A stretch of 62,222 bases of DNA, the filler included, from Chrysochromulina tobinii (lineage: Eukaryota): the NCBI GenBank assembly GCA_001275005.1. It is 8 parts of 8 records of this genome, joined end to end, with 100 filler letters (N's around TTAATTAATTAA, not from the genome) between each part and the next. Parts side by side here need not be neighbours in the genome. Positions count along the whole stretch, not along the records: positions 16,288 to 28,239 come from JWZX01001153.1; 7 more parts are not named here. One strand, 5' to 3'. Every line of letters begins with the position of its first letter. Positions within the stretch are counted from its first letter, which is position 1. Below, piece by piece: positions 10,218 through 53,810 of the stretch. The notes under the pieces are model-generated. The model made no database searches. It saw nothing but the letters and a program-made list of their open reading frames with translations, and was not told where the DNA came from. The translations under genes were made by a program, and so were the position numbers.

Positions 10218-11044
10218 GACTTCGTTTCAACGACTGCTTGCTGTGCCCCGCAACTGCAACTGGAACTGCTTGCCTTGCTGCCCCGCAGCAGCGATCGCCC
10301 GCGGCAGACACGCAGTGATCGATCACCTCAGTGTTGCAAACGCACTGCGCCTCTCAGTATTTGCCCTCTTCGCGCAAGTGGAGGTTGAAGAGTGCCCTCG
10401 CGGCACGACTACTCGATTCCTGTTCTGCACTGTACCGGTACAGGCCGCCGAGTTGCCGACCGAGATGGCGAACGTAATCAGCAGCAAGTTTGGGAACCGT
10501 CTTAGAATCGTCTCGATAGCTCGAAGTTCAGCACTTCAACTGTAGAGTATGGTGAGCCCCGCGGGGCAGCTGTACATGTATAGAAAAGTTGGTCTTTTGC
10601 CTTGTCTTTTGTCTCACCGGGACTGTACGCAGTACGCTCTCGAGGCGGGCGACCACATGGGTTCCACATCCGGGCGGCAAGTAGAACTTTTGGTAGAAGG
10701 CGTAGAACTGACTGCCCCCTGGCGAGGGGCGGTTCGTTTACCCCCCCTACGTGAAGCACCCACAACAAGTATAACGGCCTATACGGCCCGGGGTTCATCT
10801 GCATGAGTACACCCTTAACCCCCTTCCTGACTCACGCGAAACCACAAACCTCGAATCCCCCAGGCTTTTCCGTACATTGTAGGGGAAGACGGCTTGTTCT
10901 AGTTCATGTAGGGCGCGCGCTAAGTCGCACTCTGATGAAGGCCGCACTCTCAGGGCGAGAGACAGAAGATCGACGCCGCGCCGCTAGCGCGGCAAGGTCC
11001 CCGACTACTCCCGCTGCCAATCCGACGCCCCGACAGCAAGAGCA

Positions 11045-14000: not shown

Positions 14001-16187
14001 GAGCACGAGGGCACCAAAAGCGGCGTCAAGGGCACCAAAAGCGGTGCGGGCAGCGCCAAAAGCGGTGCGGGCGCCGATGGCACGGTGGGCGCGGGCGCAA
14101 GCAAGGGCGCCACGGGCGCCGCGGGCGCCGCGGGCGCCGCGGGCGCCGTGGCGAGCACTGCGGTGGACGAGCCTCCACTCGAATCGGCTTGGGATTACGG
14201 CGCCACCTTCTCCCTCCAGCCGGACGACGTGGGCGCTATGGAGCCTGACGTGTGCTTCGTGTGTGGTGGGCCGCCCCACTACGGCAGCGGGCGACTCGCC
14301 GAGGAAGAACTGCTACACTGCACCGTGTGCGCCGAGTGCTTCCACAGCTTCTGTACGCCGCTTCCCCAGGCGTCGCTCACGGAGCACACGCGGCTGACGT
14401 GGGTGTGCCCGCGCTGCCGACCGCCGCCGCCGCCGCTGCCGCCGCTGCCCGCACTGCCCGCCGATGCTTTGAGTAAGGACAAGGGTGTCGATCACGCCGA
14501 GATGCTAGAGCGTCGGCGACAGGCGACCATCGCGACGGAGACACGCTGCGCCAAGTGCGACAAGCTTCGACTCAAGGCGCGAGGAGGGGGCGCCGAGGGC
14601 GACGGCGGCGCTGAGGGCGAGGGCGGCTTCTTGAGCCTCTGGGTCTGCGCCGACTGTCGATGCTGTGAGAGCTGCAGCGCGATCCAGTCGCGTACTTGGT
14701 CCATCGACGGCCTCTGGTGCGGCGCCTGCATGCCCCAGGGCGAAAATGGCCAGTATTGCGGGATTTGCTCCAAGGTCTTTGACCATCCAGACGCTCCAGC
14801 GTCACAGGTGATGGTGTGCTGCGACGTGTGCCAAGTGTGGGTGCACACGAGCTGCGACAACATGGGCTACGAGGACTACCGGGGATACGATTCGGGCGCG
14901 CCCGGGTATGAACGGTACGAGTGCCCCGACTGTCGCAAGGGGCAGCACGAGCATGGGCCGTCGCTCTGGCGCATGATCGAGCGGCTCGTCGCTCAAACGC
15001 AGGCAAAGCGCGTCTCGCTCTCGCCCGACCTGCTGCGAGCGAGCGGGCTCGAGATCGGCGTGCACGAGCATCGCCAACGGTATAATTCGACACTTCGGTG
15101 GGTCAAGGAGCGCGGGCGGGCAGGGCTTCCGTGGGCCCAGCACTGGGCACAGGCTCTGACGATGGAGGCGGCGGCGGTGGCGGTCAAGACGGCCGCTGCC
15201 ATGGAGGCTGAAGCGAGGGCGCGGAGGGACGCGGCCGACGCGGCGAGGGCGGAGGCGTCCAGGGCGGCCAAGGCTAAGGCCAAGGAAGCGGCGGACAAGG
15301 CAGCAGAGGTCGGGACGGCGGCTGCAGTGGCACTGGCGCCGGCCGCAGCGACCACAGACGCGGCTGTGGCGCCCGAGGCGCCCAACGAGGATGAGGACGT
15401 GGCAATGGCCGAGAGCGTGCCGGCGGCGGATTCCCCCTCTTCTCCTGCTGCTGCTGCCGCCGCGGCTGACGCGCCTCCCCAGCCGCCCACAGACGATCCA
15501 TCGCCCTCTCCCCCGCACTCGCCTCCGGGCGACGGGGAGGACGAGGAGGACGGGGAGGACGAGGAGGACGGGGCCCACGGGGCCCACGGGGTCGGCGACG
15601 TTGTCGAGGACGACGACGGAGTGGCGGCCCACACGGAGGCGGAGGCTCCGATGAACATGGAGCCACCGGTAAGCGCCTGGACAAGCGCCGTCCCAAGCGC
15701 CGTCTCGAGCGCCTCACCCGCCCCATCGGCCTTACCCACCCCTCTCGTCGTCGCCGCCGCCACAGCCACGCCGCACCAGGCTGATAGCGCCTCGCAGCAG
15801 CAGCTGGCTATGGAGGCAGCCAGGGCCACAGCGGCGCTGGTGGCGAGAGGCGGTCACGGCGCGGCGCACGGCCCGGCGTCCGACATGGCGCCCCCCCCAA
15901 TCCACCTACCCGAACCCCCCGTAGCATCGGGCTACCAATGCCCCAACTGCCTACGCGCCTTCCCATCGGTCCTCGCTCTCGAGCAGCATGCACGTGCGTG
16001 CTCCGCCGTCTTCATCGGCGTCGCCGTCCCCGCTTCTGGGGGCAATGCGGCGGCCCCGCCCAGCCGCTCCCTGCCGCCGCCTCACCCGGCAAGGGCGGCA
16101 GCGGCAGCGGCGATGGCGGCGGCGGCGATGGCAGGTTCGGGAGCGCAGCCGCCCTTGCCGCCCGTGCCCGCTGCCACCGCCGCCGCC
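11045..16187 (+). CDS. Trithorax/MLL-like chromatin reader (Tudor, MBD-like, multiple PHD fingers, bromodomain, zinc finger), 3'-truncated
   Basis: Tudor VVGRRLAVYWPDDDAWYHGTV...VLYDDG; PHD CSVC...ILICDG..CGKTFHQRC...EWLCAEC; tandem PHDs; bromodomain FFAEPVS...YHTVVSVPMDFRTM...LVCQNAITWH. Removing intron 13360-13555 joins the two ORFs in frame (QCDS-CDFWVH). Confidence 0.88.
13360..13555 (+). mobile_element. 196-nt GT-AG intron of (ctgatggccc/t)n with an 8-nt junction duplication
   Basis: tgcgacag ends both the upstream exon and the intron. Confidence 0.85.
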
Positions 16188-16287: not shown

Positions 16288-18948
16288 CCTTGTTGCTTTG
16301 GATGGCCTCGCAGACTGCGTTTACGCCCTCATCCTTGAGGCTGTTGGACGACAAATTCAGGGCCGTCAGCCCGCCATTGACGCCTACCATCTTGGCCACG
16401 TCCTTGGCTCCTGCTGACCCACCAATCTCGCTGTGGCTGATGTCGAGCTCCTTGAGCGTCGAGTTCTGTTCTAGTGCCTTGCAGATGGCTTTGGTGCCCT
16501 CCTCCCCCAACCTGTTTACGGCAAGGGACAGCTTCGTCAGCCCGCCATTGACGCTGATCAAGGAGGCGATCACAACCAAAGAGTCAACGCCAAGATTCTT
16601 GCGAGAGAGGTCGAGCGTCTCGACGGGGTCGGTGCCTTTGAGCTTCTTGACAGGGAGAGCAAACCCATCCAAGTTCACCTATGCATTAGGGACCTCCAAA
16701 AATCAGTGCAAGAGGGTGCACATCTGGGCTGAGGGAGCACAGCTGAGCACAGTGTACCTCCGTCAGCGAGCCATTGACGCTGATCAAGGAGGCGATCACA
16801 ACCGCAGAGGCAACGCCAAGATTCTTGCCCGAGAGGTCGAGCGTCTCGACAGTGTCGGTGCCTTTGAGCTTCTTGACAGGGAGAGCAAACCCATCCAAGT
16901 TCACCTATGCATTAGGGACCTCCAGAAATCAGTGCAAGAGGGAGTACATCTGGGCTGAGGGAGCACAGCTGAGCTCAGCGTGCCTCCGTCAGCGCGCAAT
17001 TGACGCGCAGAGCGTCGGCAATGGCCGTGATGCCCTCCGCAGTGTAGGTGCTTCTATTCACTCTGCAGAGTGAGTTGTTGGAGAGGTCCAGGCTCGTCAG
17101 CACGCCTGTGACAATAACCTGTGACAGGTCCGACGCCAGCATGATCGCATCGGGTGGCTGGAGGCTCTTGTTGCAGAAGTCAGCGGTGGCCTGGTCACGC
17201 TGGATGCCGCAGAGCGAGATACCCTTCTGCTTCGCGACTTCGGCGAGCATCTTGGTGGACTCCACATCAAGCTGATTGCCCAGGAGGTTGGCCACCGTCA
17301 GCGCGCTGTTGACACCAAGCATGTCTGCCACATGCTTAGCGCCTACTTCTCTGCCAATATTGTTGTGACCAGACAGATCGAGCTCCTTGAGCGTCTTGTT
17401 CTGTTTGAGAGCCTCGCAGATGGCCTTGGTGCCCTCCTCCTTCAACTTGTTCCACGCCAGGGACAGCTTCGTCAGCGCGCTGTTAACGCCAAGCATGCCT
17501 GCCACATGCTTGGCGCCTGCTACCCCTCCGATATTGCTTCCCACATAGCCAGACAGATCGAGCTCCTTGAGAATCTTGTTCTGTTTGAGCGCCTCGCAGA
17601 TGGCCTTGGTGCCCTCCTCCCCCAACTTGTTTCCGGCAAGTGAAATTTTGGTCAGCCCGCCATTAGCAGGAATGAAATAAGAAATGAGCATGGCCGCAGG
17701 CCCACGAAGCCCCTTTTCACGCAAGTCCAGCTCCGTCATGGTGTCCTCCCGCATGTGCTGCACCGGAATGCCGCATGCCACACCTGAGCCCGCACAGGCG
17801 ACGGCTGTGATGATCAGCTTCAACGGCGCCTCTCCGTCGCCTGATATGCAGCTGTCGAGAGCAGCCTTAGCAGTACCACGAAGCAAAAGAAAGCTAGCAA
17901 AAGGTTCTGGGGCACCAGCACCAAATGCACCGAAGCCGCCGAACGGGCCGCCACCAAAATGATTCGCCTCCTGGACGGCCAGATTCGCGGCCCGTACTTT
18001 CGCCACGTCCACCACAAAGCCGTAGCCATGGAGGCGCGCCAGCCCTGGCAGCATCCGCCCCGCGAGGGCAGTGTCCCAGGGACGGCCGGCCTCGATGAGC
18101 AGCTCAACGTCCAGGTCGGTGATCTCTTCCAGATGTGTGGGTGCCGGCTGCCCGCGGCCGCGGCACAGGCGCGAGCAGAGGACACGCCGTGACAGCGCAC
18201 GCCAAAACCGATTCACGCCCTTGAGCTCGCACAGCGTGGCCACGTCCACCATTCCCAGAGCAGCCTCCCTGGCATCCGTAGTGGCTGGCACCCCCGAGAG
18301 CGAGGGCTGCCGCAGAGGTGCGGGTGGTGCCGTGGAGCTGGCCGCGCCGTGCTGCTGCAGCGCCTCGTAGCCTTCTGGCAGAAAAGCCGACTCGGCGAGT
18401 GCCGCCTCGAGCTCGGCGCCTTCAAAGTCGCTACCCGCGCCAAGCAGCGCACGGAGCTCGTCAGCATTCTTGCCGTTGACCCGGGAAGCGATGACAGACT
18501 GATTGTGCTTGAGTAGCATAGGGGCATCCAGAAACAGGGCGCCCTCGACGTGTTCCACGAGCTGCGATAGCGAATGCTCGTCAGAGCTCGGCGACAAGGG
18601 ATTGCTGGCGTAACCCTCGTACCGGAGCTCTTCAAACGACTTGTTTTGGCATTGCTCCATCCGATGCATGAGTGCGCCCAGCATCTCCGGCATGCGAACC
18701 AGCGCGCGAAGCGTCGAGGCTGTGACAACGGGCACCGGATACACGCCGTCCTCGGAGCTGGCATCGTCCATGAGATCCTTCAAATGACCCGCGAGTCGAG
18801 CCACCTCGCGCGACATCGTGACCTCCTCTCCGTCTCGCGCTCGCACGCGGATTGGCTCGTCATCACGTGTGGCCTTCTTCGCCGCGGGCGCCTCTTCCTG
18901 CTCCTCGGCCGGCGATCCAGCGACGATTGTCTTGCCCGAGAGGCTCAT
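16288..18948 (-). CDS. Skp1-like + F-box-like + RNI/NLRC3-type LRR protein, 3'-truncated
   Basis: Skp1-like IRVRARDGEEVTMSREVARLAGHLKDLMDD and GALFLDAPMLL...IASRVNGKNADELRALLG; F-box-like LGMVDVATLCELKGVNRFWRAL; LRRs such as LTKLSLAWNKLKEEGTKAICEALKQNKTLKELDLS. Introns at 16905-16983 (GC-AG) and 16679-16757 (GT-AG). Confidence 0.85.
16535..16992. repeat. 226-bp exon+intron tandem duplication in the LRR region
   Basis: A 147-nt exon (NLDGFALPVKKLKGTD...) plus a 79-nt intron is present twice, nearly identical. Confidence 0.92.
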
Positions 18949-19201
18949 CGTTGCTTACACGCCGTAAGGCAACCACACAGTTGCTTTCGCGGGGCGTCCG
19001 AGCTTTTTGCCCGCGGGAAGTCCGTGCAGGAAGTCCGTGTGCCACGAGACCGGAACGTGTGCCGAAGTTGGCCTTTGTGAAACCCTTTTTTTCTCAGATA
19101 CCGGTAAGTTCCTGAAGAAAAACCACACTTGAAGGTCATCTTTCCCCTTCACAGGTTGGTGTCGTCCCCGTCGTCGCAGGCATCAGGCCGCACGGGGCCA
19201 A

Positions 19202-22200
19202 GTGCCTCGGACCTCGAAGACAGGAGAAAGAAGCAAGAGGCAGAAGCTCACTCAACTCCTTCCAAAGAGTCGCTCCGCCGTCCTTGGGCTGCACACGATT
19301 GTGAGTACCGGAGCGCTTGATGGTAGTTTCGACTCTCTTCCCCCAAACTACCGGAATGAAAACTTTTTCACAGCCTGGGCGTTCGGGATGTCGGACGCCG
19401 ACGACGGCACCCGTGCAGCCAAGGCGCGCTGCCGGCGCAGTGCAAGCCGCTCGGCTGTCGATCGGCGCGCGTGCGTGTCTGCATACCTGGCCAAGAAGGC
19501 GATTGGCTCCAATGACAGCGTCGCGGAATATGTAGCCCGAAGCGGGCCCCGCCGCTGTGCGACCCCCTCTGACTCTATGAGTGATGCAGATCGCGTGGAG
19601 ATGGCACGTTGCTTGCGAGCCATGGCGCCACCCACGGCGGGTGCCGCCCTCGCAATGTCCACCCTCGTTCATCAGCATTTGTGGACGCCTCCGGCAGCGC
19701 CGCCGCCGCAGTGCAAGCCGCTCGGCACCTCGGCTACGACGACAACGGTAAGGGGTGCGTCTTCAGCCTCCGCCGAGTGCGTGAAGAGTGCCGGGATGGC
19801 CTCGTGGTCTGTCTCGGGGCTTGCGAGCGAGAATGGCTCCGAGTGCGGCCGTCATTGGCAGGGCACGGCCGAGGTGCGCTGCCTTTTTGCGGACCGCGAC
19901 GTGCTCTTCATTGGCAATAGCGTGATGCGTCGTCAGGTGTTCACACTTCTCGACTTGCTCGCTGGGCCAGCGGCGCATCGGCTCAGTGTGAACGGTGGCG
20001 AGACCGTGAATGTGAGCACGGCGGACGGCACGCCCGCGATGGCGCCGAGTGAGCTCCTTTCAAGCACAAGGCTGTGGGATCTTGATGGTCACGAGCATGG
20101 GTACCACGCCGCACAGCTGCTGACCATCGATCTCGCCACCGGGGCCCACCGCTTCCACCTTCCCCACAGGTGATTGCAATTGATGGCCACTGATGGCCTC
20201 TGATGACCACCGGGGCCCACCGCTTCCACCTTCCCCACAGGTGATTGCAATTGATGGCCACTGATTGCCTCTGATGACCACCGGGGCCCACCGCTTCCAC
20301 CTTCCCCACAGGTGATTGCAATTGATGGCCACTGATGGCCTCTGATGACCACCGGGGCCCACCGCTTCCACCTGCCCCACAGCGAGCTATGTGGCGTCGA
20401 GAGGGCTTATGCCAACTTCAACGCGGGCCGAGCGCGCCAATGGTGGTCCCCTTCCGCACAGGTGATTGCCACTGATTGCCTCTTGATTGCCATTGATTGC
20501 CACTGATGGTCCCCTTACGCACAGGTGATTGCCACTGATTGATGTCCACTGATTACCGCTGACCGTGCGCGCCACCGATCTCGCCGATCTCGCCGATCTC
20601 GCTGATATGACCGACTCGTCGATCTCGTCGATCTCGTCGACCAGATCGACGCGCAGTGGCTGAGCTCGAAGTGGCGAGATCGTGAGTGGCGGCCGCTCGT
20701 GTCAATGACTCTCGGATGGGATTCCACACGAGCACCCGTCGCCGTTACATCGACGGGTGCCGCGCAGCATGCAAGTGCTCGCCACGGCGCCGACGCGACG
20801 GGTGCAGCCGCGAACGCGAGCGAGCGAGCGCGAGCATGCCTGGAGCAGCCATCGGTGATTTGGGCGGGAAGTCATCGTGCGGGCTTAGTGCCCGGCGCGG
20901 CGCTTCCAAATAAGGACCTGCCTAATCAGGACCTGCCTCATCAGGGCACATCCCGTGCTGAGGCCGTGCGCCGTCAGCTGCTGGACGCTGTGCGCGCGCA
21001 CCTGGTGAAGCTCGATCCAACGGCCGCTGAGTGGGTGGGCAATCTCACCGTCCATCTCGACGAACGCCCAGCATGCAAGCGCTCACCACGGCGCCGTGTC
21101 CCTTCCCCACAGGTGGGCAATCTCACCGTCCATCTCGACGAACGCCCAACACAGCGCGCACCCAGCAGGGCGGCGGAGTCTACGCCCCCCCGCGCCCGTG
21201 CTTCCCACGCCCGAGCTTCCCCGAACGCATGGGTGGTCTTCCCTACCTACCATGGAGAGCGCCAGAAGTTCAATGGGTATCAGTGCTCATTCCCACTGAT
21301 GGCCACTGATTGCCACTGATTGCCTCTGATGGCCTCTGATGGCCTCTGATGGCCTCTGATTGCCTCTGATTGCCTCTGATTGCCTCTGATTGCCTCGTGG
21401 TATCAGAGCTCATTCCCACTGAGATGCCCGCTGCATGCCCTTCTGATTGCCTCTGATGACCTCTGATGACCTCTGATTGCCTTCCTCATCAGGTACTGCG
21501 GCGGTGCCATGCCGCCGGGCGAAGTCTGTAAGTGCACTACCACCGTGCCGCCCACGTGCTCAGACCGGCGCGCGTCGTGCTACGGCAAGCGGCTGTGCGC
21601 GCCGCTCGCGCCCGGCTCGGCGCGTTTCGTCGAGGCGGCTCGCGGGCTGGCCGCTGCGCTCTCATCGCCGTCGGCCGAATCTCGAGATCGCGAGCTCGCG
21701 CGGGGAGATCGCGAGCTCGCGCGGGGAGATCGCGAGCTCGCGCGGGGAGACCTCGAGCTCGCGATCTCCGTGTCCCGCGTGCGCGTCTCTCCCTTGTATG
21801 ACGACTGCTGGGAAGGGCGCGACCGGTGTATGGGGTACGCTGATTGCCTCTGATGGCCTCTGATGGCCTCTGATGACGGCTGATGTCGGCTGATGATGGC
21901 TGATGACGGCTGATGACGCGTGATGGTCTCCCTCATCAGGCAACGACCGTGCCACGAGCGCCTACGCAGCCCAGCATGCAAGTGCTCACCACGGCGCCCC
22001 CTTCCCCACAGGCACCGACCGTGCCACGAGCGGCTGGATGCGGCGTACATCTGCCGATCGACTGCACTGCTCTGTCCCCGTACGTGCTCGTGGCCTCTGA
22101 TTGCCACTGATTGCCACTGATGGCTCTGTCCCCGTACGCGCTCGTGGCCGCCGGGGGTGCATGCAAGTGCTCACCACGGCGCGGACGCGCTCGTGGCCGC

Positions 22201-23185
22201 CGGCCCTCAGCCGTTGGGGGTCTGCATGCAAGTGCTCACCACGGCGCGCCCGCACTTCCCCACAGGCACGCGCTCGTGGCCGGCGGCTCTCAAGCAAGCC
22301 AAGTCGTGGATCCCAGCTGCCCATCCCTCGGCGTCGCTCCTCTACCTCTATGATGGGCAGGTGATTGCCGTTGATTGCGACGGAGGCCCCCTCACTGCCC
22401 CCCATCTGCCACTGTTGGCTTCGGCGTCCCTCCATTACCTCCATGATGGGCGCCATGATGGGCAGACGCAGAATGCGATGGATGCGTCTCACTGATGACC
22501 ACTGATGACCTCCATTGCATCCATGATGGGCAGACGCAGGATGCAATGGATGCGACGTTTCGAAGCTGGGCGCCTCCCACGATTGGGTACGGCTCGCATG
22601 CAATCATCCTCGGGCCGCAGGTGATTGCCTTTGATGATCACTGATGGCCACTGATTGCCACTGATTGCCACTGATGGCTAAATATTGCCTCCGGCTCGCA
22701 TGCAATCATCCCCTGGCCGGCAGTTCGCCAACACACGCAGCGTCGGCGCGATGCGTCGCTCTCTCAGCCTGATGCGAGCCGCTCTCACTCATGCCGATCT
22801 ATGCCTGGGCCAACGTACGCTCGCCGTCTTCCGATCACCCGCGTTGGGGGTCTGCATGCAAGCGCTCACCACGGCGCGTCCGCACTTCCCCACAGGTACG
22901 CTGGCCGTCTTCCGATCTCCCGCGTTCAACTTCGACCCGGTGAACACCTTCCACCAGCAGGCTGCCTTTGCGCAGCGCATGCGCCCGATCGTCGAAGAGT
23001 TCGGCGCCGTCTTCGTCGATCTATTCCCAGCGACGCTCCGGGCGGCCTTCCCACCCCCATCGGTGCCCGACGCTGAGCAGATTGCCATCCGATTCGACCG
23101 GAACAGCGCGTTCCACTACCTCGACGCTGGGCGCTATCTCATGGCGCAGATCCTGCTCCACGTCCTCCACTTAATCTCCACTTAA
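19202..23185 (+). CDS. SGNH/PC-esterase-like (O-acyltransferase/esterase) protein, many introns
   Basis: N-terminal block CLFADRDVLFIGNSVMR and C-terminal DRNSAFHYLDAGRYLMAQILL. About ten repeat-derived introns lie between 20170 and 22895; exon limits are partly uncertain. Confidence 0.65.
20170..20382 (+). repeat. Intron made of three 71-bp units (core + duplicated upstream exon end)
   Basis: gtgattgcaattgatggccactgat...caccggggcccaccgcttccaccttccccacag x3 = 213 nt. Confidence 0.88.
21035..21112 (+). mobile_element. Family-B intron (gcatgcaag.gctcaccacggcgc...ccccacag) with a 36-nt exon duplication
   Basis: gtgggcaatctcaccgtccatctcgacgaacgccca opens both the intron and the next exon. Related cores occur at ~21973, 22159, 22224, 22854 and 51863-51932 (minus strand). 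Confidence 0.85.
22815..22895 (+). mobile_element. Family-B intron with a ~31-nt exon duplication
   Basis: gtacgct(c/g)gccgtcttccgatc(a/t)cccgcgtt is duplicated around the core gggggtctgcatgcaagcgctcaccacggcgcgtccgcacttccccacag. Confidence 0.85.
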
Positions 23186-23744
23186 TCTCCACTTAATCTC
23201 ATGGCGCAGATCCTGCTCCACGTCCTCCGACTGCTTGCACAAGGCTGAGCCGTGCATAGATCTCCACTCGAGATCTCCACTTAATCTCCACTCGCGAGAT
23301 CTCCACTCGCAACGGCCAGAATGACCAGTGGCACACGTGCGCGCGCGGCCCCGCCGCACGAGGGCATCTTGCCCCCTGAGACAAGTTTCGGACGGGATTC
23401 TTGCGTGGTCCATTTTCCATTCTGCCGGTTGTCAATGCTAGTCGCGACTTTGAAACAGGTACAGGACGGTTCGTCAACCGCAACCCCTAAAGGCACACGA
23501 CGGCGGCGAGACTCGTGAGGCGAAAGGTGAGTTGGTGCCTTCTCGGGTCCCGACGTTCCTCAACCTCAACCTCCAAAAGCCGTTTCACACAGAGGGTGTG
23601 TGATAACGTGTATTATCAGAGCTGAAACCGAATCCCAAAACTGCACCCAAAAGCAATCAACAAGTTACACTTCGCAACATTCCTGGTATCGCCTGCCGCA
23701 GTCCGTGCCTCTAAGGAGCTCCGAGCGAGCGGACAAGAAGGGCG

Positions 23745-26700
23745 ATGGCGAGCAGCTCCGATACCTTGCCGCTTCTGCCAAACGGCGTGGAGCGCAGCAA
23801 CTGGAAGCCACCCAGGGAGGGGCGCGGCCCGCACAGGCCAGCCGACCGGCCAGACGAGTCAGAGGGCCGCAACTCTCTGCTCGATATAGCCAACCAGCAG
23901 CGCATAAGCTGGTGGTCGGGCGCGGTTGCAGGAGCCATCGTAGGTATATTTGTGGGTGGTGTGCTTGGTAAAGCGGTGCAGCCACTCATTTACGGCCCGA
24001 TGATACCCGCCAACCAGTGCTGCGCATGCCCTCAACCGCCGCCACAACTACCGCCTCCCTTGACACCGCCGCCGTCGAGCCCACCGCCACCGTCACCGCC
24101 GCCGCCTCGGCTGCCGCCACCTCGTACTCCGCCGTCAGTGCCGCCGCCCCTCACACCGCCAGCGTCACCGCCGCCGCCAAGCCCGCCGCCGCGGGCACCG
24201 CCGCCACTACTACCGCCGCCTTTGCAACCGCCACCGTCGAGCCCACCGCCATCGTCACCGCCGCCTCCTTCTCCGCCGCCACCTCGTACTCCGCCGTCAG
24301 TGCCGCCGCCCCTCACACCGCCAGCGTCACCGCCGCCGTCAAGCCCGCCGCCACGGGCACCGCCGCCACTACTACCGCCGCCTTTGCAACCGCCACCGTC
24401 GAGCCCACCGCCATCGTCACCACCGCCTCCATCTCCGCCGCCACAGCCGCCGCCAAGGCCGCCAAGGCCGCCGCCGCCAAGACCGCCGCCGCCGCCGCCG
24501 CCCGAGGTTGCTCTGTGCGGCACCCTCTCGGCAGACACGTTCCTCACCGCGGGTCCAGTCTGCGTTCTCACTTGCCAGGTGTTCGTTCCCTCGGGCATCG
24601 TCCTGAGTATCCAGCAGGGCGTCACCATTTACGCCTCGCCGGTGGCTGCGGATGGCGGCGGTGCGCCCGCCCTGATCATCGAGAAGGGCGGCTCTCTGCT
24701 CGCCGAGGGCTCTGCGACTGCGCCGATCACCTTCACTGCCTTCAACCCCACCGAGTCGTCCTCGTCGTCGGTGTCGAGTGACTCTTCCAGCGCGGATACC
24801 GTGCTCGAGAAGCGCGGCAAGTGGGGCGGCCTGATCCTGCTCGGCAACGCGCCGACGAATAGGGCGACCACCACGACAATCGAGGGCATCACAGCGCAAA
24901 CGTACGGCGGCACCAATCCGACCGACTCGTCGGGCTCCATGCAGTACGTGCGCGTCTGGCACGGCGGCGCGGTCGTGGGCGCGAACAACGAGATCAACGG
25001 CATCACCTTCGGCGGCGTGGGCTCCGGCACCGTCGTCGACCACTGCGAGGTGGCGTACAGTGCGGACGACGGCTTCGAGTTCTTCGGCGGCACCGTGAGC
25101 GTCAAGTACCTGTCGGTGCTCTTCGCAGGCGACGACGGCTTTGACACGGACCAGGGCTACATTGGTAAGGGCCAGTTCCTTTTCGTGATCGAGGGCCTGG
25201 GTGGCGACCACTCGATGGAGATCGACTCGGGCATCGGCTCGAATCAGGACGTGACCCCGCGCTCGCACCCTGCTTTCTACTCGTTCACCTTGATCGGCGG
25301 AGGCACCGGTACTGGCGCGCGCACGGGCGAGCTGATGCACATCAACGACGGCACGGGTGGCAAGTTCGGCAACGGCATCCTAGCTCACCCGCACTTGGAC
25401 GGCCTCCTCTTCGAGGACTGTGGCTCGATGAGCTACACGCAGACGCTTCCGGCGGCCTCGGTCAGCATTTCGAACCCCGGATACTTTTACTTCTCGGCCA
25501 ACAACATCATCGACACGGCGACTGCTTCGTCGCAGTTCGCTCTGCACACAGGCACCACCACCTCTTGCACACCCGTGGGCACGTGGACGGCTGAGTTTGG
25601 TGCCCCCGGCTTCGTTGCGGTCGCCACCACTGACCTCGCGGAGGGCTCCGCCACCTTCAACCCTCTGCCGTCCCCCACCGGCGCGGCGTGCACGGGCGCC
25701 AAGGACGTACCACCCAACGGCGACACCTTCTTCTCGGCGGTGAGCTGCAAGGGCGCGTTCGGCACCTCGACGGACAACTGGCTCGGCGGCTACTCATGGC
25801 TCGCGTGCAGCGGCAGGATGGCTGGTGCCACATGCACTTCCAGCGCTGCGAGAGCGGCCCTGACGCCGCCGTTCGTGCCGCTGCTTTCGAATGTCACCTT
25901 GCTGTCGAGCAAGTACTCTTCCAACACGGCCCTCGGCACGAAAATCTCGTACATTCTTGCCTCCCAAGTCCTCGTGTCGGCAACCCTCACGATCCCTGCT
26001 GGCACCACCTGTTTTGCGCTGCCCAACGGCGTTGCCGCTCCAGCACTCGTGGTCTTGAAGGGCGGCTCGATCAGCGCGTCGGGCACGTTCTCGATGCCGA
26101 TCACGTTCACGTCCGTGCTTGCGGAGTCGGCGCTCGTGAGCTCGGCCACCGCCGTGACGGACTCCAACGAAAACGCCATCACGCTCGGCGAGCGCGGCAA
26201 GTGGGGCGGGCTCATCCTGCTCGGCAACGCGCCGACCAACGTGGCGACCACCAAGCAGATCGAGGGCATCACCGGCCCCACCTACGGTGGCAGCAACCCG
26301 ACCGAGTCATCGGGCACCCTGCAGTACGTGCGCGTGTGGCACGGCGGCGCGATAGTGGGCGCGAACAACGAGATCAACGGCATCACTTTCGGCGGCGTCG
26401 GCTCCGGCACGACGGTCGCGTTCTGCGAGGTGGCGTACAGTGCGGACGACGGCTTCGAGTTCTTCGGCGGCACCGTGAACGTCAAGTACCTGTCGGTGCT
26501 CTTCGCGGGCGACGACGCCTTCGACACGGACGAGGGCTACGTGGGCAAGGGCCAGTTCCTGTTCGCGATGCTCGGCGCTGTGGGCAACCACGGCGCAGAG
26601 ATGAACTCTCTGTATGGGAGCATGCCACGCTCGCACCCGGCCTTTAACGGCATGACCATCGTGGGCGCCGGCGCCCTCTCGACGCGCGTGAGCAACGCGA

Positions 26701-28239
26701 TGATGTGCCTGCGCAAGGGCACGGGCGGCAAGTTCGGCAACTTGATCCTCGCCAATGTCGCGACGCACCCTGGCATCCGCATCGATACCTGCAGTCACAG
26801 CGGCAGCGCCGCGCCCTCCATTGTGTCAGTGCTGCCAGCGGCATCGGTGTCGCTGGGCACGTACCTGTTCTTCTCTTCGAACAACATTATCGAGAGCCCC
26901 ACCGTCGGCTTCGTAATTGTGCCGCCATGCACCGGCACGGCGCCGGCCTTTGTGAACACGGATCCGCTCATGTCAGGAGGCACGTTCATTGAGACCAGCA
27001 CGGTTCCGATCGAGCCGCGCCCCGCGTGCGGCTCGGCCGCGTACTCCAGCGTTGACCCGGTGCCCAACGGCGACTCCTTCTTCAGTGCGACCACGTACAA
27101 GGGCGCGTTCGGCAGCGTCAACTGGCTCGATGGCTGGTCGTTCTTCAACCTACTCAACCGTCGAGGCTTTGTCAACGCCAGCTTCACCTGCCCCCCGCTG
27201 CCGCCGCCGCCGCCCTCGCCCTCACCGCCGCTGGCACCTTCGCCCTCGTCACCGCCGCCGCCAAGCCCGCCACCGCGGGCACCGCCGCCACTACTACCGC
27301 CGCCTTTGCAACCGCCACCGTCGAGCCCACCGCCATCGTCACCACCGCCTCCTTCTCCGACGCCACCTCGTACTCCGCCGTCAGTGCCGCCGCCCCTCAC
27401 ACCACCAGCAACACCACGACCTGTGCTGCCGCCATCCCCTGTGCGGCCGCCACCCCGGACTCCTGAACCCCCTAGAACTCCGCCCCCCCCTGTGCTGCCG
27501 CCACCCCGGACTCCGCCCCCACCTGAAACTCCGCCTCCACTGCGTCCTCCGCCTCCGCTGCGTCCTCCGTCGCTGCCTCCACCAGTGCCATCGCCGCCAC
27601 CTCCATCGCCGCTGCCTCCACCTCCATCTCCAGCGCTACCGCCTCCACTATCACCGCGTCCTCTGTCGCCCCCGCCACCGCGGTTGCCGCCTCTGTCACC
27701 GCCTCCACTTCCGCCGCCGCCACCTGCTATGCCGTCGCCGCCACTGCCACCACCACCGCTCATACCACCACCTCCGCCGTCGCCCTCTCCTCCACGGGCA
27801 CCTTCGCCGCAGCCACTGCCACCACCGCCGCCGCCGCCGACTCCACCGCCGCCGCCATCGCCGCTGCCGCCGTGCCCACCGTTAAACCCGCCACCGCCAG
27901 ACCCACCGCCACCACCTGAGCCGATGCCGCCATCGCCGATGCCACCAGGGCTGCCGCCCCATCCACCACACGCTCCCAGCTTTTTGAACGTCATGAGCTC
28001 CGAGTTCGATTGGATCCTGCAGAAAGCAATGGGCATGGGTTCAATTATTCTATTGCTAATCCTATTGCTTGCCTTTGGATGTCTTTGTCATTCGGTCATT
28101 TCCTTGTGTTGCGTATGGTTGAAGACCTACTGCAACTGGGCGGAGGAGAAAAAGAAGAGCCCGAGCCCGGAGGAGAAAAAGAAGAGCCCGAGCCCGGAGG
28201 AGAAAATGAAGAGCCCGGAGGAGAAAAAGGAGGAGAAAA
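23745..28239 (+). CDS. Membrane-anchored surface protein: TM, Pro-rich stalk, two bacterial-type beta-helix domains, Pro-rich stalk, TM; 3'-truncated
   Basis: GKWGGLILLGNAP...SSG.(M/L)QYVRVWHGG...NEINGITFGGVGSGT...DDGFEFFGGTV occurs twice. Hydrophobic segments GAVAGAIVGIFVGGVLG and IILLLILLLAFGCLC; C-terminal EEKKKSPSP repeats. Confidence 0.85.
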
Positions 28240-43773: not shown

Positions 43774-43776
43774 CCA

Positions 43777-43813
<37 letters not shown>

Positions 43814-46501: not shown

Positions 46502-49500
46502 TCATCCAAGGTGCAGGACAGAGCGTAGGGCGTTCTCCTCGAAGAGGCGCGTGCGGCGCGGAACCGCCCCGGCAGAGAGCGCCTGCTGCTGCCTCGGGCT
46601 CAGCAGGTCCGATCCCGAGCGTGGGTCCGAGCCCGACCGTGGCGTGGCGTGAGCGTGCCCGATCCGCGGCGTGATGATCAGCAGTGGGCTGGGCGCCACG
46701 GCGCTCACGGACGAGGGTCGACTCGAGAGGCTTCGCGCCAGCGAGGAGAGGCCGTGGCCTGATGAGGGACGCAATCAAGGGGCATTAGGAGGCAATCACG
46801 AGGAGCCATCAAGGGTCTCGCGCCAGCGAGGAGAGGCCGTGGCCTGCACCTGTAGTGAGCGAGCGAGTGCTGCAGCGAGAGCTCGTCGGCGTCTCCCCGT
46901 GCTGTGCGCGCGCCGCACCCTCCGGAGTGAGCAGCTCCAGGCCCAACTGATGCTCGCCACAGCGCGCAGCCCGGCGCTCAGCCTGGAGATGCTCGCCACC
47001 CCCGAGTGCCGGGCTGCGCGCTGTGGGGTCTCGTGGCTGTCTCGACATGGCTTGGTATCCCTGGAGGACCTCTCTTGCAGCCGTGAGCTCGGCCGAAGCC
47101 GCCACGTCGACGGACGGTGCGGTGGCCCATGCGGCGAAGGCAAACGATGCGGCGGCGGAGCCTGTCTGGCCGCCAGTCTCCGCGCCGACGCTGCCGCTGC
47201 AAGCGCCGAGCTGCAACTGGCTGAGCTGGAGCTGTTCCCAGGTTGAGCAGCTCAGCCGTGGCGTCGAGCCCACTGCTGGCGTCGAGCCCACGCCAGCAGT
47301 ACAGCCCACTCCAGCAGTACAGCCCGCGCAAGCCTCGGCCGCCACGGTGCTCGTGCCAACGGGGAGAGCGCCGGCGTGCCCCCCCTGCACGCGCCCGGCT
47401 CCTTCGACAAGCGCTCGAGACGACGCGCCTTCGACGAGCGCTCGAGACGACGCGCCTTCGATGAGCGCTCGAGCGCGCAGGTCGACGATCGCGGACTGCT
47501 TCGCTTGCTCCAGCAACTCCGTCTCCTGCCGGCGCTTCACCTCTCGCCCTGCCTCCTCCCACGCGGCGTGTGCGGACGTTTGCCAACGGGCGAGCTCCGC
47601 AACGGTCGCCGAGAGCTGCAGCACACGTTCCTGGTCTCCTCGTTCCGCAAGCTGCGCCATGCGCGCCACCGCCTCCTCGGCCACCGCTGCGGCCGTCTCC
47701 GCCTCCACCTTGTCAGCGCGCTCTGCCTCGAGAGCCAAGGCAGCCTCCGCGAGGGTCTCGCGCACCTGATGAGGAACGCAATCAAGGGTCATTAGGAGGC
47801 AATCACGAGGAGCCATCAAGGGTCTCGCGCACCTCCGCCACGTATTGATCGCGCTCGGCTGCCTCGGCCATGCTCGCCCTACGGAACTGCACGGCGTGCC
47901 CGCGCGCCGCCTCGAAGTCGCCCTCCGCATGCCGCAGCTCGAGATGCATCTGCGTCACCATGACCGCCGCGCGCGCCTCGGACGCTCGGCAGCGTGCCTC
48001 GGACGTTGCGAGCTGCTCGCGCAGTGCAGCCAGCCCGCTTGCCTGCTCGCTCAGCCGCCCTTCGAGCTCGGCACAGCGCGCGCCCGCCCGGGCCGACTCT
48101 TCAAGTGCCGTACTCGCCTGATGAGGGACGCAATCAAGGGTCATTAGGAGGCAATCACGAGGAGCCATCAAGGGTCTCGCGCACCTCCGCCGCGCGTGCT
48201 TGCGCGTCCCGACGGCTGAGCTGCCAGTTCGCCTCCGCGCCCGCGCTGGTGGAGCGCGCCGTCTCGAGCGCCTCCTCGAGCGCGTGGCGTGCTACGCGCC
48301 ACGACGCCTCCGCCTCGGCGCGCGCCGCCGCCGCTCGTTCTCGCTCGAGCGCCTCGCCGTCGGCGCGTCTGGCGTGCGCGGCAGCCTCCGCGGCCGCCGC
48401 GTGCGCGCGCTTCTCCGCCTCCGCCGCGCGCTTCTCCGCGAGGGTGAGCTTGAGTCGTATAGCGCCCAACTGCTTCTCCGCCGCGTTCAGCTCGTGCGCC
48501 ATCACGTAGACGCTCAGATGGGTCTCGTTCTGAGCTCCGACGAGCTCCGCCGAGATGGCGCGGCAGGCTTCGTCAGCCGCCGCAGCGGCGCCCTCACTCT
48601 CGCGCAGCTCGAGCTCGAGCGTCGTCTCGAGCACGTGCGCCTGTGCCGCGTGCAGGTTCCTTGTGGCCTCGAGCCGCGTGAGATGGCAGGACGACAAGCT
48701 CTGCTGCACGGCGCTCAGGCGCGAGGCGAACTCGCTCGCCTGCGCATCGGCCGCCGCCTCAATCGCCGCAATCGAGGGCGACGCCACCGGCAGCGGCAGG
48801 GTCGGCGGCGGCGGCGTCGGCGGCGCCTCGTATCGCCACACGTGTTGTGGGTGCAGAGGCTGGCTGCTCTGGGGTGTGGAGGGCGCTTGGGGGCTCAACT
48901 TCTCCAGAAGCCACGTAATGGCCTCCGGCAAGGTGGGGCTCGACTCCGCATGCAGGTGCTCACTACGGCGCGCGTTCGACTCCGCATGCAGGTGCTCACT
49001 ACGGCGCGCGTTCGACTCCGGCGGCGCGCCGCTGCCTCGCCAGCGATCGCCTGCGCCGTAGTGAGCACCCGCACGCGCGTCGCCCTGGATCCTCGCCAGC
49101 TCAGCGCTCACGCCGCTCAGCCGCTCCTCGAGCTCGCGCACGAGATTGGCCGTGCCCTCCTCAACGCGCCTCATGCGCTCCTCGTGCTCAGCCAGCCCGG
49201 CAGCTTCGCGCGCCGCGCATGCACGGGCGGACGCGGCGATGGCGGCGGCGGCCTCGTGCTTCAGCCGTTGGCGCATCTCTTCACCCTCCGCCGTCCCTTT
49301 GCGCACCAGAGCCTCACGCTCGGCGAGCAGTGCAGCCTCCCGCTCGGCGAGCTGCCTCTCGGCCTCGCCCGCCGCACGCGTAGCCGCCTCCGCCGTCTCT
49401 CTGAGGGCGCCCAACTCGGCGTCCGTACGCATCAGATCCACGAGCAGCACGCGCGCCTGCGCCTTGGCCGCCGCCGCCTCGTGCGCCCTCTGCGCCTGCA

Positions 49501-52500
49501 ACTGCTGGTGCAGCTCGGCCGCCGTCTTGGCCATATCTTGCTCACGACGGCGCGCCTCGGCCATCAGCTCGTTGAACCGTCTCTGCTCGTTGGAGACATG
49601 GTGCGCGGTGCGCAGCTCGATGACCCCACGCTCCATCGCCTGCGCCTCGAGTGCCTCGCGGGCCTCCACCTCGCGTTCCGCCGCCTCATGTGCACGTTGC
49701 TCGGCCTCAGACGCGCGCCGCTCCGCTTCCACAGCGCGCGCCTCGGCCGCCGCCTCGACCGCCATGGCCGCCTGCTGCATCGACGCGGCGGCCGCCTCGG
49801 CTTGCTCCGCTCGGCTGAGCGCCGCCGCTGCGCGCGTGCTGGCTTCACTCACCTGCCGCGCGGCCTCTCGAGTGGCGGAATGGGCTCTGTCGCTCAACTG
49901 CTGCGCTTCGCGCGACGCATGAGCCGCTTCGGCCTCCAACCTCGCTGTCGCGTCGCTCAGCGCGGATTGGGCCTGGCGCACCTCCTCGTGCGCCTTGTGC
50001 ACTGCCGCGTCGCGCGCCGCCGTTGCCGCGGTCGCCTTCGCCTCCGCGCGGAACGCGTCGTCACGGGCGCTCTGGCACAAGGCAATCGCCCTCGAGTGCG
50101 CCGCCTCGGCGGCTGTGGTGGCCTCGCACTGCTGCCCGAGCGCGCGCAGAGTCGTGTGGAACCCTTGCTCGACCGCCGCAAGCTCCGCGCTGAGCAAGAG
50201 CTCGTGCGCCGCCGCTTGGGCCTCGTGCAGCCGCTGCGCACGCGCCGCCCCCTCGGCCGCCGCCGCCGCCGCCTCCCAAGCTTCCGCCGAGGCATGCACG
50301 GACAGGCGCCGAGAGGACGTCACCGACTCGAGCGCCGCGTGCGTGCGCTTCGTCTCGTCGCCTGATGAGGGAGGCCATCAGAGGCCATCAGAGGTCATCA
50401 GAGGCCATCAGAGGTCCGCAGAGGTCATCAGAGGAGGTCATCAGAGGAAATCAGAGGCCATCAGAGGAGGCCATCAGAGGAGGTCATCAGAGAAGGTCAT
50501 CAGAGGAGGTCATCAGAGGCCATCAGAGGCCATCAGAGGCCATCAGAGGCCATCAGAGGCCATCAGAAGTCATCAGAGGAGGTCATCAGAGGAGGCCATC
50601 AGAGCTCGGTGCGCAGTTTCGTCACCTAGCTTGCGCTCAGCGGCAGTGACCAGTCGATCGGCGTCCCGGAGCGCCGCGCCGAGCGTCGCGCCCACCACGG
50701 CGCGTTCGGCTTGCTCTGCGAGCGAGCTTCGCATCCGTTCAACACCCGCGCGCGCGGCCTCGGCTCGTGCGCACTGCAGCGCCGCCGCCGTCCCGGCCGC
50801 CTCGGCCTCGGCGCTGGCGAGCGCAGTGCGCCACGTGGCACGCTCCGCACACGCTTCCGTCCGCCAGGCGGCGCGCTCCGCCGCCGCCTCGGATTTCTCC
50901 AAGTCCGCGCCGTCCAACAAGTGCTGGACGGCCGCGAGCGCGCCGTCGAGCTCCTGCTTCGCCTCGAGGATCCCGCTCGCAGCCGCCTCGTGAGCTGCCC
51001 TCGACTCTGCCCTCGACTCGCGGGCGGCTGTGCCGGACTTGCGCCGAGGAGGAGGCGAGGAGGAGGAGGCACGCCGGCGAGAGGGCGGCGGCAGCGGAAA
51101 GGCCGAAGAGGAGGAGGAGGCACGCCGGCGAGTCGGCGGCGACAGCGACCCAATGTCGAGGCGTGCCTGCTGCAAGTGCCCTTCGATGATTTCATTTGCA
51201 GTCGTGAACAGAGTCTTGTTGACATTGTCATCCAACACCCCGGCCGCGGCGGCCGCCCGTCGCGCCTTGGAAAGCGGGCTGAGCCCTATTCGGAGCTCCT
51301 CCTTGGCCGCGGCCGCGCGCCGCTCCGCCTTCGCCGCTCGCGCCTCGGCCGTCTTGGCCGCCTGCCGCGCGGCCGAGAGAGGGCTCAGTGCGCGCTCCGT
51401 CTCCTCCTCCGCCTCCAAGACGGCCACGCGAAGCATCGAGCGCTCTGTCTGGTGCAGCCGTTGCTTCTCATCGAACGCCTCGAGGAGCTTGCGATGCTTC
51501 TCATCGAACGCCTCGAACAGCTGCCGCTTCTCACCGTCCCAGGCTGCCGCCGCCTCCGCCGTCGCCTCAGCGAGGGCCGCCTTCTCGGCTGCGGCCGCCT
51601 CCATGCGCTCCGAGAGGCACTTGAGCTCGCTCTGAGCTCGAACTGCGCCTCGATAGGCGGCGGCCAGCTCAGCCTTGAGAGCCTCGATCGTCTCGACTGC
51701 TGCTGCTGCGAGCGCATCGGCATCGGAGACAGCCTCGCGGAGCAGCGCACGCTCGATCTCGAGCTCGGCGGCGCTCCCTGCCCACTGTTGTACCTGCTCA
51801 GCAAGCGTCGTCGCCTGCTCCTCGGCCAGCTCCGCTCGGCGCTGCCACGTGGCCAGCCGCACCTGTGGGGAGGGGGGCGAATCGTGAGCACTTGCATGCA
51901 GCGCGCCCTCGAGGCCACGTGGCCAGCCGCACCTCGAGAGCGCCTATCCCGTTCCTCATCTGCAGCCGGGTCGCGAGGACGCTCTGCTCGGCCACTTGCT
52001 GCTGGCGCTGCACGTCCGCCATTGCGTCCTCGAGCACCACCACCGTCGCCTCCACCTCCGCCAGCGCGTCGCTGAGCGCGCGGCCCGCTGCCGCCGCTTG
52101 CTCCCCCTCCAGCTTCAGCTGCGTCGTCTGCGCGGCCGCGTGCTCGAGTGTCGTCCTGTGCTGCACCTCCAGAGCCCCCAGCTCCTCCATGTACGCTCGG
52201 CTGGCGACGCTCAGCGCGCTCTCGGCCCGCTCAGCGCGCGCAGCGGCCGCGTTGGCGGCCTTTTCGAGCTGCATAAGGGTCGTCTTGTGTGCCTCGGCCC
52301 TCGCGGCTGCTTCCGAGCGCATACTCTCCACCTCATCCGCCACGGCCATGTGCTCGCGCATGCTCGCCTCTCGTGCGGCCGTCACGAGCGCACGGCGCTC
52401 GTCCTGGAGGCGCTGCTCGGCCTTCGCCACGGCGGCCTCGCGTTCCTCGAGGAGTGTCGTGAGCTCCTCGACTGCGAGCTCGCCCGTCTCGGCGCGCTGA

Positions 52501-53810
52501 CGCCATCCGTCCGCTCGGACGCTCAGAGAGCGGTGCGCGTCGGCCGTGTCCGCCAGCAGCGCCTCGAGCGCCTCGAGCACCTGCGCGGAGCGCCCGCACC
52601 CCTCCTCGAGCCGTAGCTCCGACAGCACACAGCACGTCGTCGCTTCCGCACACGCAGCCTCGCGGTAGATGCCAGCGAGGCGCTCGGCGCCGCGCCTCTC
52701 TGCGGCCTCGAGTTTCGTCTCTGCGGCCTCGAGTTTCGTCGCCGAGATTCGTCGCTCCGCGCGCCCCTTGACGTGCATGGCCAGCAGGCTCACGGCAAGG
52801 CGGCGCTGGCGCGCCTGGAGTCCGTCGAGGGCGGTCCGCAGCATGCTCGCCTGATGAGGGACGCAATCAAGGGTCATTAGGAGGCAATCACGAGGAGCCA
52901 TCAGGGCGGTCCGCAGCATGCTCGCCTCGTCTTCTGCATCCGCGAGAGGGCCACACAGTGCGCGTGCGACCACGTCGCTGTGGACCTCCACCGCCGCTTC
53001 CCTCGCCGCCGCCGCATCCGCCTGCACGGCAGCTAGGTGCTCAAGCACATGGCTCGGCCACACGTCACGCGCGGGCATCATCGGCATCGGGCTGGACGCA
53101 ACCACAGAAGGGGCCATCGCGGTCGGGCCCGGCGGCACACGCCGCGGCGACGCACGCTGCGGCGGTGGTGCGTGCGCTGCCTTGCTCGCGGTGGCCGGCG
53201 TGGGCTGCGTGATGCCACGCGCCTCGTGCTGCGTGATGCCACGCGGCTCGTGCTGCCACGCCTCATGCGGCTCGTGCTGCCAAGTCGCTGCACCCGCGGC
53301 TGCCAGCGGCGCTGCCGCAGCAAGGAACTCGCGGCGGCGCTCGTGCACGTCGAGGGCATGTGCGACTTCCTGCAGCTGCTCCATCTCTGAGAGAGGCGGC
53401 GGGCTCGGAGAATCTGCTTCGTGCTGCTCTAGCTGCGCAGCGTCCTCGGCCTGGCGGCGACGGCGGAGCGCATTCAGCTCGTGCTCGGCACGTAACAAAG
53501 AGGCATGCTGCCGCCTCTCCTCCTCTTCACTGCGGAGCTGGGCGAGCTCCGCCTCGCGCTGAGCGCGCTGCTGACGTAATTGCTCCTCCTGCTCTTGTTG
53601 TTTCGACGAGAGCTCGCGCACGGCGGCGCGCATCTGATCGAGCTCAGCGTTGGCGAGTGTGAGCGCCCTGGACGACCTCCACTCCGCGAGCTCCTTGTCT
53701 CTCAGAGACTCCTTGAGCTGCTGCCGCTCACGGACCGCCGCAAAGTAAACGGCGTCGCGACGCTCCCAGCGGGCCGAGGCGAGCGCATCATCGAAGCGGT
53801 TGGACGCCAT
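46502..53810 (-). CDS. Large Ala/Glu/Arg-rich coiled-coil protein (~2,226 aa, six introns)
   Basis: Removing introns 52851-52925, 51863-51932, 50362-50625, 48118-48184, 47766-47832 and 46759-46843 leaves 6681 nt (2227 codons) and links the listed ORFs in frame. Confidence 0.8.
46759..46843 (-). mobile_element. Family-A intron (GC-AG), 28-nt duplication
   Basis: Core tgatggctcctcgtgattgcctcctaatg.cccttgattgcgtccctcatcag; flanking repeat aggccacggcctctcctcgctggcgcga. Confidence 0.88.
47766..47832 (-). mobile_element. Family-A intron (GT-AG), 16-nt duplication
   Basis: Same core; aggtgcgcgagaccct at both junctions. Confidence 0.88.
48118..48184 (-). mobile_element. Family-A intron (GT-AG), near-identical to 47766-47832 but lacking its own duplication
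   Basis: Begins gtgcgcgagaccct, which matches the exon after the 47766 intron rather than its own downstream exon (gcgagtacgg). Confidence 0.88.
50362..50625 (-). mobile_element. 264-nt intron of ctctgatg(g/a)c repeats ending cctcatcag
   Basis: Splicing joins ERKLG to DETKRTHAA in frame; degenerate junction duplication. Confidence 0.8.
51863..51932 (-). mobile_element. Family-B intron, 21-nt duplication
   Basis: aggtgcggctggccacgtggc flanks ...gcatgcaagtgctcac...ccccacag. Confidence 0.85.
52851..52925 (-). mobile_element. Family-A intron (GC-AG), 25-nt duplication, in frame and stopless
   Basis: aggcgagcatgctgcggaccgccct is duplicated; reads through as ASMLRTALMAPRDCLLMTLDCVPHQ. Confidence 0.88.

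Follow-up and report, generated by a model that had tools for sequence, protein, structure and literature searches.

A gene of the haptophyte Chrysochromulina tobinii (assembly GCA_001275005.1) carries, within 2.7 kb, nine spliceosomal introns composed of recurring core modules and duplicated stretches of the adjacent exon. We consider it somewhat probable, at roughly 55%, that these introns were born recently by microhomology-mediated template switching at the DNA level, during repair or replication, with selection keeping the spliceable and in-frame outcomes. The gene lies in the contig at positions 16288-28239 of our window, a stretch of 62,222 nt consisting of eight contigs joined by N spacers. 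Intron composition, splicing, clustering, and variants shared privately within one gene were all observed directly. The origin of new introns has long been an open question: most recent gains have no known source, and mass gains have been credited to transposons.

Translation from the ATG at 19388, after removal of nine GT..AG segments, gives an intact frame of 795 amino acids (aa), whose end-to-end alignments to the top three of 16 homologs show 46-47% identity; a Prymnesium parvum protein is ~40% identical. Keeping any one of seven of the nine introns truncates the protein, and the remaining two (21035-21112 and 22815-22895) are in frame and free of stops if retained. At the protein level, the homologs lack the residues that the inserts encode; close to its C-terminus, one homolog (P0001) has an insertion of its own, 28 residues long, that is likely an intron read through. 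Pfam gave no meaningful match for four exon pieces of the gene or for two full-length homologs. In the Atlas clusters for query P0003, PF13839 occurs in 16% of members, a lead only, by which the protein is likely SGNH/PC-esterase-like.

Public runs containing the stretch come from mixed culture (10 DNA, 5 RNA) and freshwater (1 RNA). Run X16 represents another strain and holds RNA only, the remaining RNA runs are from the same strain as the window, and all RNA and DNA support was taken from assembled contigs rather than raw reads. RNA contigs identical to the window (0 differences) join across introns 3, 6, 7, 8, and 9 (Table 1). For introns 1 and 2, X16 record 25 has 84 unaligned letters from 20161 to 20642, equal in size to the exon pieces kept, and the length of X12 record 18 matches removal of both. 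Support for splicing is thus graded as direct RNA joins (five introns), fit of record lengths (two), and prediction (two). In DNA run X1, the segments 20344-21063, 22227-22668, and 22649-23165 are unbroken, at a depth of 68-85 like that of the flanks and with 0 differences; because this DNA carries the inserts, the RNA joins represent splicing and not empty alleles. The stretch is an intact, transcribed gene. The reading that a first-pass annotation, made from the sequence alone, had named as its own undoing, an untranscribed pseudogene with decaying inserts, is refuted by the spliced joints from the same strain and by the intact frame. High-depth X16 contigs over window 22051-23479 retain intron 9 together with a portion of intron 7. 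They open with 363 letters of unrelated sequence ahead of 22471 and lack 4 nt past 22290, and one carries first-copy letters at the site of intron 6; they may represent a copy that has decayed or been rearranged, or else an allele lacking intron 6. Given these other anomalies, their retention of intron 9 was not counted against its splicing.

Where the first-pass annotation had seen a hot spot of about ten insertions in 2.7 kb, we find nine introns between 20170 and 22895, several of them compound and holding some 16-18 modules by our own reading, plus one exonic insert. All nine are spliceosomal introns (GT/GC..AG), with splicing seen directly for five. Some modules have a 24-nt core that defines family B, with cores in this gene at 20767, 21071, 21974, 22159, 22224, and 22854; five exact cores in ~2 kb compare with an expectation of 0.02-0.04 for an assumed genome of 40-100 Mb, in a region picked for its density. 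Intron 3 takes its GT from a 36-nt copy of the downstream exon and its AG from the core and tail. Duplications of 31-36 nt had been claimed, a range that holds at 21035 (36-37 nt) and 22815 (31 nt) but not at 21940 (~21-24 nt) or in the modules of 22080-22265 (14-25 nt). The stacking of a repeat-type and a B core was read correctly: intron 5 is a decamer intron with a B module, and its acceptors at 21939 (decamer part) and 22011 (B module) are mutually in frame, giving 819 or 795 aa. In X13 record 2 and X14 record 6 the B core of intron 5 is continuous into the exon with intron 6 spliced out, so that either the upstream acceptor 21939 was used or intron 5 was still unspliced; X11 record 13 ends where the two spliced forms would part, which is a hint only. 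Intron 6 consists of a decamer module, a tail-less B module, and a full B module, each preceded by a copy of the start of the downstream exon.

Introns 1, 2, 7, and 8 have a mirror geometry, in which the copied exon lies upstream and supplies the AG. This arrangement had been recognized at 20170, with a triplicated 71-nt unit, and it stands: each unit of intron 1 is a GT and decamer core followed by a 34-nt copy of exon 20136-20169 with AG at its end, units 2 and 3 having one base difference each. The copy number of 3x71 is as assembled, and DNA contigs break at that repeat. Intron 2 combines a 63-nt mirror unit, with a ~18-26-nt copy of the upstream exon, and a 120-nt unit with 9-mer repeats; intron 7 has a GTGATTGC donor, a 29-nt upstream-exon copy, and an additional 68-nt duplication; and intron 8 takes its AG from a ~30-nt upstream-exon copy. 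All five AG|GTGATTGC donors found belong to this gene. Removal of intron 4 restores the FNGYCG of the homologs, and X12 record 19 leaves the window at 21275. A 123-nt intron at 21276-21398 was ruled out because it has no GT..AG register.

Family B extends well outside the gene. A scan for the exact 24-nt pattern returned at least 163 matches in at least 139 loci, and dropping duplicates and short-flank sites left 145 sites, 108 with a pyrimidine tail and YAG and 37 without. In 76 of the 108, a copy of the downstream exon, beginning exactly at the acceptor, is present upstream of the core, compared with 13 of 2000 (0.65%) shuffled pairings, which bears out the proposal of a second family whose donor comes from the duplication. 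The copies have a median of 26.5 nt (range 10-44, 10th-90th percentile 14-36, with one 74-nt tandem unit); 67 begin with GT and five with GC, and 29 are perfect. Thus, the exon copy supplies the GT or GC, and the 24-nt core and the AG originate elsewhere. The donor sites have a G|GTGCGC-like consensus, which the start of the exon mirrors, and 74 of 108 tails end in TCCCCACAG. As the first 10-44 nt are locus-specific at these 76 sites, similarity among the introns does not extend to both ends. Median intron length is 80.5 nt, with mod-3 classes of 24/31/21 and no bias. The A of CTCAC in the core lies a median of 27.5 nt (22-36) before the acceptor end, where a branch point would be expected, and, judged by this position, may be the branch point.

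A rough recapture estimate (109 sites, eight pairs; our own grouping of loci) suggests ~740 exact B sites, and the module is likely common to hundreds of introns. In 72 degenerate copies from a fuzzy search, the 24-nt core is conserved and the linker and tail vary, an outcome that the search method favors. The core has a weak internal hairpin (-4.3 kcal/mol), and its variants mostly retain a 5-bp hairpin around the branch-position A, as transitions alone would also do. Decamer-type acceptors show the forward geometry in eight of 25 cases (control 0.43%). A narrow pattern for the mirror geometry found none in 105 kb of other loci; its control, at 25.8%, is uninformative, and all four sites are in one gene. 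The recurrence of B that had been claimed for another contig, at 51863-51932, is a predicted intron with an exon duplication, as proposed, although its core is incomplete (Table 1). Rfam returned nothing relevant over 19300-23500 (one match, E 0.21, lies elsewhere) and no head derived from tRNA, 5S, or 7SL, and no terminal inverted repeats occur at intron ends among the inverted repeats found. A viral contig collection yielded a single match, an exact B core (L140) at the end of a short contig that is probably host DNA, and no sign of a viral source.

Some introns appear to have been copied from other introns. In a minus-strand gene on contig 43774-54173, removal of six predicted introns opens a 2241-codon frame, compared with 740 codons unspliced, and four introns have in common a variant of the decamer that occurs in 0 of the 139 other loci listed. 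Among the four, only 47766-47832 has as its own the 14-nt exon copy at its start, and copying would have run from it to the other three, which sit 0.35-5 kb away. Junction microhomology of 4-7 nt is present in all three of these daughters and is suggested at 21071 and 22212 too. In the nine-intron gene, three of six B cores have a common linker found in 0 of 139 other loci listed. The last module of intron 6 and intron 9 agree at 95% across 60 nt, of which 4 nt belong to the exon copy in intron 9; by this match, intron 9 is likely the donor. Elsewhere, the start of the exon at locus L018 reappears in L017, at a distance of 1.2 kb. Linkers of at least 8 nt are held in common by two of 21 same-contig pairs versus 10 of 5543 other pairs (the pairs are not independent).

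Cores also occur where they are not spliced. The exonic insert at 20751-20795 adds residues relative to homologs and is kept in RNA (X16 record 25 is continuous over 20642-20790 and X11 record 12 over 20767-20968); in its core, at 20767-20790, the branch-position A is changed to G. The insert at 23136-23195 is likewise unspliced, with continuous RNA over 23136-23225 in X12 and X15. In-frame repeats at 20907-20945 (a 15-mer resembling the acceptor end of decamer introns) and 21684-21763 (21-mers) encode residues absent from homologs and are further exonized inserts of this gene. Where tail-less sites have a duplication and no other intron motif, the period is divisible by 3 in 12 of 16 (P 8e-4; counted by hand).

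A codon model for gene strand, correct in 61 of 67 known cases, places L099, L130, and L139 antisense to their genes, and L052/L122 (one site) is antisense as judged by neighboring introns. At the latter, the core and the stop codon of a gene overlap, and the last exon of this gene may resemble the C-terminus of a family-A DNA polymerase. The antisense variant at 48940-49020 also occurs in sense ~60 nt away. Because all five antisense sites examined lack the CCCCACAG tail, the fixed 3' end of spliced copies looks selected rather than the end of an element, and this argues that at least some events took place on DNA. What goes beyond the first-pass annotation are the copies in exons and in antisense, the local copying from donor to daughter, the second in-frame acceptor, and the gene-private variants.

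In the mechanism that we propose, a 3' end lying within an exon, either nascent or left by a break, would pair through a microhomology of 2-7 nt with an intron already in place, in some cases a nearby one of the same gene. Synthesis would copy the branch-point core, in many cases continuing to the intron's AG, and the 3' end would then re-enter its own gene 0-45 nt upstream of its exit, often at G|GT, so that a stretch of exon is duplicated. Repeated cycles would give tandem and stacked modules. Selection would retain copies that splice cleanly, those beginning at a good GT or GC or, in the mirror case, ending in AG, together with in-frame outcomes, and every new intron would become a new donor, making hot spots self-feeding. 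That this constitutes transposase-free, self-amplifying mass intron gain, in which repair synthesis pastes branch-point modules and duplicated exon gives the missing splice site, is a possibility to which we give slightly less than even odds.

Several points weigh against template switching on DNA. No empty allele was seen in DNA, and for this reason we can only infer recency and the donor-to-daughter order. The core is sharply conserved over 24 nt amid a variable linker and tail, which plain block copying does not explain, and 63 of 64 degenerate cores are on the same strand as their neighbor. Synthesis by polymerase theta typically spans 1-25 nt (PMC7407515), compared with patches of 40-60 nt here. 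The mirror geometry is known from the one gene, with an uninformative control, and 32 of 108 tail-bearing B sites fall below the duplication threshold. Further, 19 of 21 same-contig pairs are without a long shared linker and linker subfamilies recur across contigs, so most donors are distant, and mobile RNA accounts for distant donors equally easily.

Such an RNA route has been proposed for intron gain, as template switching by reverse transcriptase (RT) (PMC3443670, section 6). An RT copying the gene's transcript would jump at AG|GT to an intron's 3' end, whether in that pre-mRNA or a different one, and back, and the cDNA would recombine into the gene. The strand bias, the same-gene donors, and the precise 3' junction would all follow; however, antisense copies with a duplication exist, one extending into a 3' untranslated region (UTR), and cDNA recombination would tend to lose neighboring introns, whereas nine remain in 2.7 kb. 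We regard this route as unlikely. Quite unlikely, in our judgment, is a short non-autonomous introner resembling a short interspersed element (SINE), which would end in CCCCACAG and insert by target-primed reverse transcription, leaving target-site duplications that are long and variable. Introners of the non-long terminal repeat (non-LTR) type do exist (PMC12130899), and the common TCCCCACAG ending, the variable 5' end and duplication length at B sites, and the spread of linker subfamilies across contigs are as such an element would leave them. Yet the 3' tail is missing from copies in antisense and in exons, the 5' end is the fixed one in the mirror geometry, decamer cores behave alike, daughters bear fragments of donor exon, and there is neither a poly-A or repeat tail nor an Rfam match.

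The introns might instead be old, with an unusually long branch-point motif under selection and 5' ends that the following exon later overwrote, through local slippage or gene conversion. Sharp conservation over 24 nt between variable flanks would suit this idea, as would the hairpin retained by most variants and the altered branch A of the exonic copy, but exonic and antisense cores have no splicing role, the density of exact cores is far above expectation, and cores are stacked and accompanied by donor-derived fragments; we find it very improbable. Assembly artefact or pseudogene decay is scarcely credible, even though DNA contigs break at repeats and the high-depth X16 contigs look defective: X1 DNA contigs hold the inserts at full single-copy depth without differences, same-strain RNA joins across them, the protein is intact and full-length, and the second gene opens to its long frame once six such introns are removed. 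For introns 3, 6, 7, 8, and 9 it is refuted by the RNA joins. A Helitron-type origin was rejected because no target duplication is expected of Helitrons.

The modules work like an introner, yet by the features tested they are no member of that class. Introners also form families of related introns where the element brings one splice site along and the other comes from the target duplication, in either direction; some dinoflagellates have tens of introns in a gene, one family has been reported from Chrysochromulina sp., and the many dispersed introns seen here (at least 139 loci) are comparable. However, introner duplications are family-specific and 3-9 bp long (4 bp in the Chrysochromulina sp. 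family; PMC9860276), or 3-8 nt in dinoflagellate classes (bioRxiv 10.1101/2020.10.14.339549), whereas ours are variable at 10-44 nt, and similarity here is limited to the internal 24-nt core and the last 8 nt. Unlike DNA-transposon introners, these introns show no fixed short duplication and no terminal inverted repeats. A 2022 survey kept families with similarity beginning at most 10 intronic bases from both ends, a filter that would discard B introns because their similarity fails to reach both; a 2025 survey includes non-LTR and unknown-mechanism families, with haptophytes absent from its main text (PMC12130899). SINEs and other non-LTR retroposons resemble our introns in the variable duplication and 5' end, and differ in that here the fixed 3' end is lost in five of five antisense sites and no tRNA, 5S, or 7SL head was found.

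Gain at staggered breaks also gives new introns with direct repeats, and young introns there lengthen by repeated bouts, but the repeats described there are either short or internal, with inserts that do not make up a family across the genome, whereas here a shared splice-signal module is captured from other introns. In tandem genomic duplication (PMC3443670), duplicated exon likewise contributes a splice site with no change to the coding sequence; both sites come from the duplicated AGGT, whereas here the branch point and one site are ectopic. Intron transposition by reverse splicing (PMC3443670, section 6) resembles the case of 48118-48184, a whole-intron copy at a new site in the same gene without duplication; most events here differ in copying part of an intron and duplicating exon, and antisense copies occur. 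Iterative templated insertion by polymerase theta is known, as are rice insertions with duplications and donors within 200 bp (PMC7407515). Templated insertion by polymerase theta or synthesis-dependent microhomology-mediated end joining (SD-MMEJ), together with patch-type tandem duplication, resembles our case at the sequence level in its junctions at microhomologies, its templated inserts in direct and inverted orientation, its iteration, and its nearby donors, and is described as leaving repair scars rather than as a source of intron families. Repair-linked intron gain and tandem duplication are thus known separately (PMC3443670, PMC4202315, PMC7407515, PMC8469720). We found no description of this intron architecture in the literature searched, which included few subscription papers and left out survey supplements, where a haptophyte relative could be listed. 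There is a fair chance that the mechanism is a distinct, transposase-free one.

If that is true, introns breed introns without a transposase, as a class invisible to surveys that look for end-to-end similarity. The introns also expose a blind spot of published introner surveys. Each intron records its own origin: its exon copy is dated (29 of 76 are still perfect), its module can be traced, and in several cases a donor can be identified. Given sites that likely number in the hundreds, a culturable strain with RNA data, and related strains sampled, the repair, RT, and retroelement models can be tested.

Table 1. Coordinates of the gene, its introns, and related inserts in the window
Feature	Position	Strand	Description
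Nine-intron gene, haptophyte protein	19388..23185	+	Model and alignment to homologs
Intron 1	20170..20382	+	Mirror geometry, 3x71 nt; removal fits lengths of X16 record 25 and X12 record 18
Intron 2	20462..20644	+	Two stacked units; removal fits record lengths
Exonic 45-nt insert	20751..20795	+	Tail-less B core with 10-nt duplication; in frame
Intron 3, family B	21035..21112	+	RNA join in X12 record 19, 21033 to 21112
Intron 4	21277..21492	+	Predicted; decamer arrays with internal 24-nt duplication
Intron 5	21835..22011	+	Decamer intron with stacked 72-nt B module; full removal predicted from homologs and contig ends 22011/21835
Intron 6	22080..22265	+	Three stacked modules; RNA joint 22079-22266 (GT..AG) in 2/4 runs (X13, X14)
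Intron 7	22361..22533	+	Mirror geometry; RNA joint in 2/4 runs (X13, X15)
Intron 8	22621..22723	+	Mirror geometry; RNA joint in 4/4 runs (X13, X14, X15, and X16, the other strain)
Intron 9, family B	22815..22895	+	31-nt downstream-exon copy; RNA joint in 2/4 runs (X14, X15)
60-nt insert	23136..23195	+	33-nt duplication and 11-mer repeats; replaces last residues
Daughter intron (putative)	46759..46843	-	Own 26-nt exon copy; 6-nt microhomology into donor's exon-derived part
Decamer-variant intron	47766..47832	-	Likely donor of three introns of the same gene; own 14-nt exon copy at start
Whole-intron copy	48118..48184	-	Exon fragment of donor site, no local source or duplication; 7-nt shared upstream exon
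Two tail-less B-core variants	48940..49020	+	Antisense to minus-strand gene, 36-nt period, in frame in exon
B-like intron	51863..51932	-	70 nt, GT..AG; exon duplication gives GT; first 16 nt of B core only
Daughter intron (putative)	52851..52925	-	Own 23-nt exon copy, GC donor; ~4-nt microhomology to same core as 47766-47832

Elsewhere in the window, a PHD/Tudor/bromodomain gene at 10988-16187 has a single decamer-array intron near 13363-13509, and a CCCTAA telomere repeat opens a contig at 28340-28456. This array and the protein homologs indicate a haptophyte alga; a second protein of the window is only 52% identical to a cluster that includes a Chrysochromulina-labelled member. A 2765-codon frame without introns at 33487-41784, with an endonuclease/exonuclease/phosphatase domain as its sole match, may be a large mobile element. 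The frame at 55639-57960 has two OmpA-family domain matches, and the rest of the window is eukaryotic.

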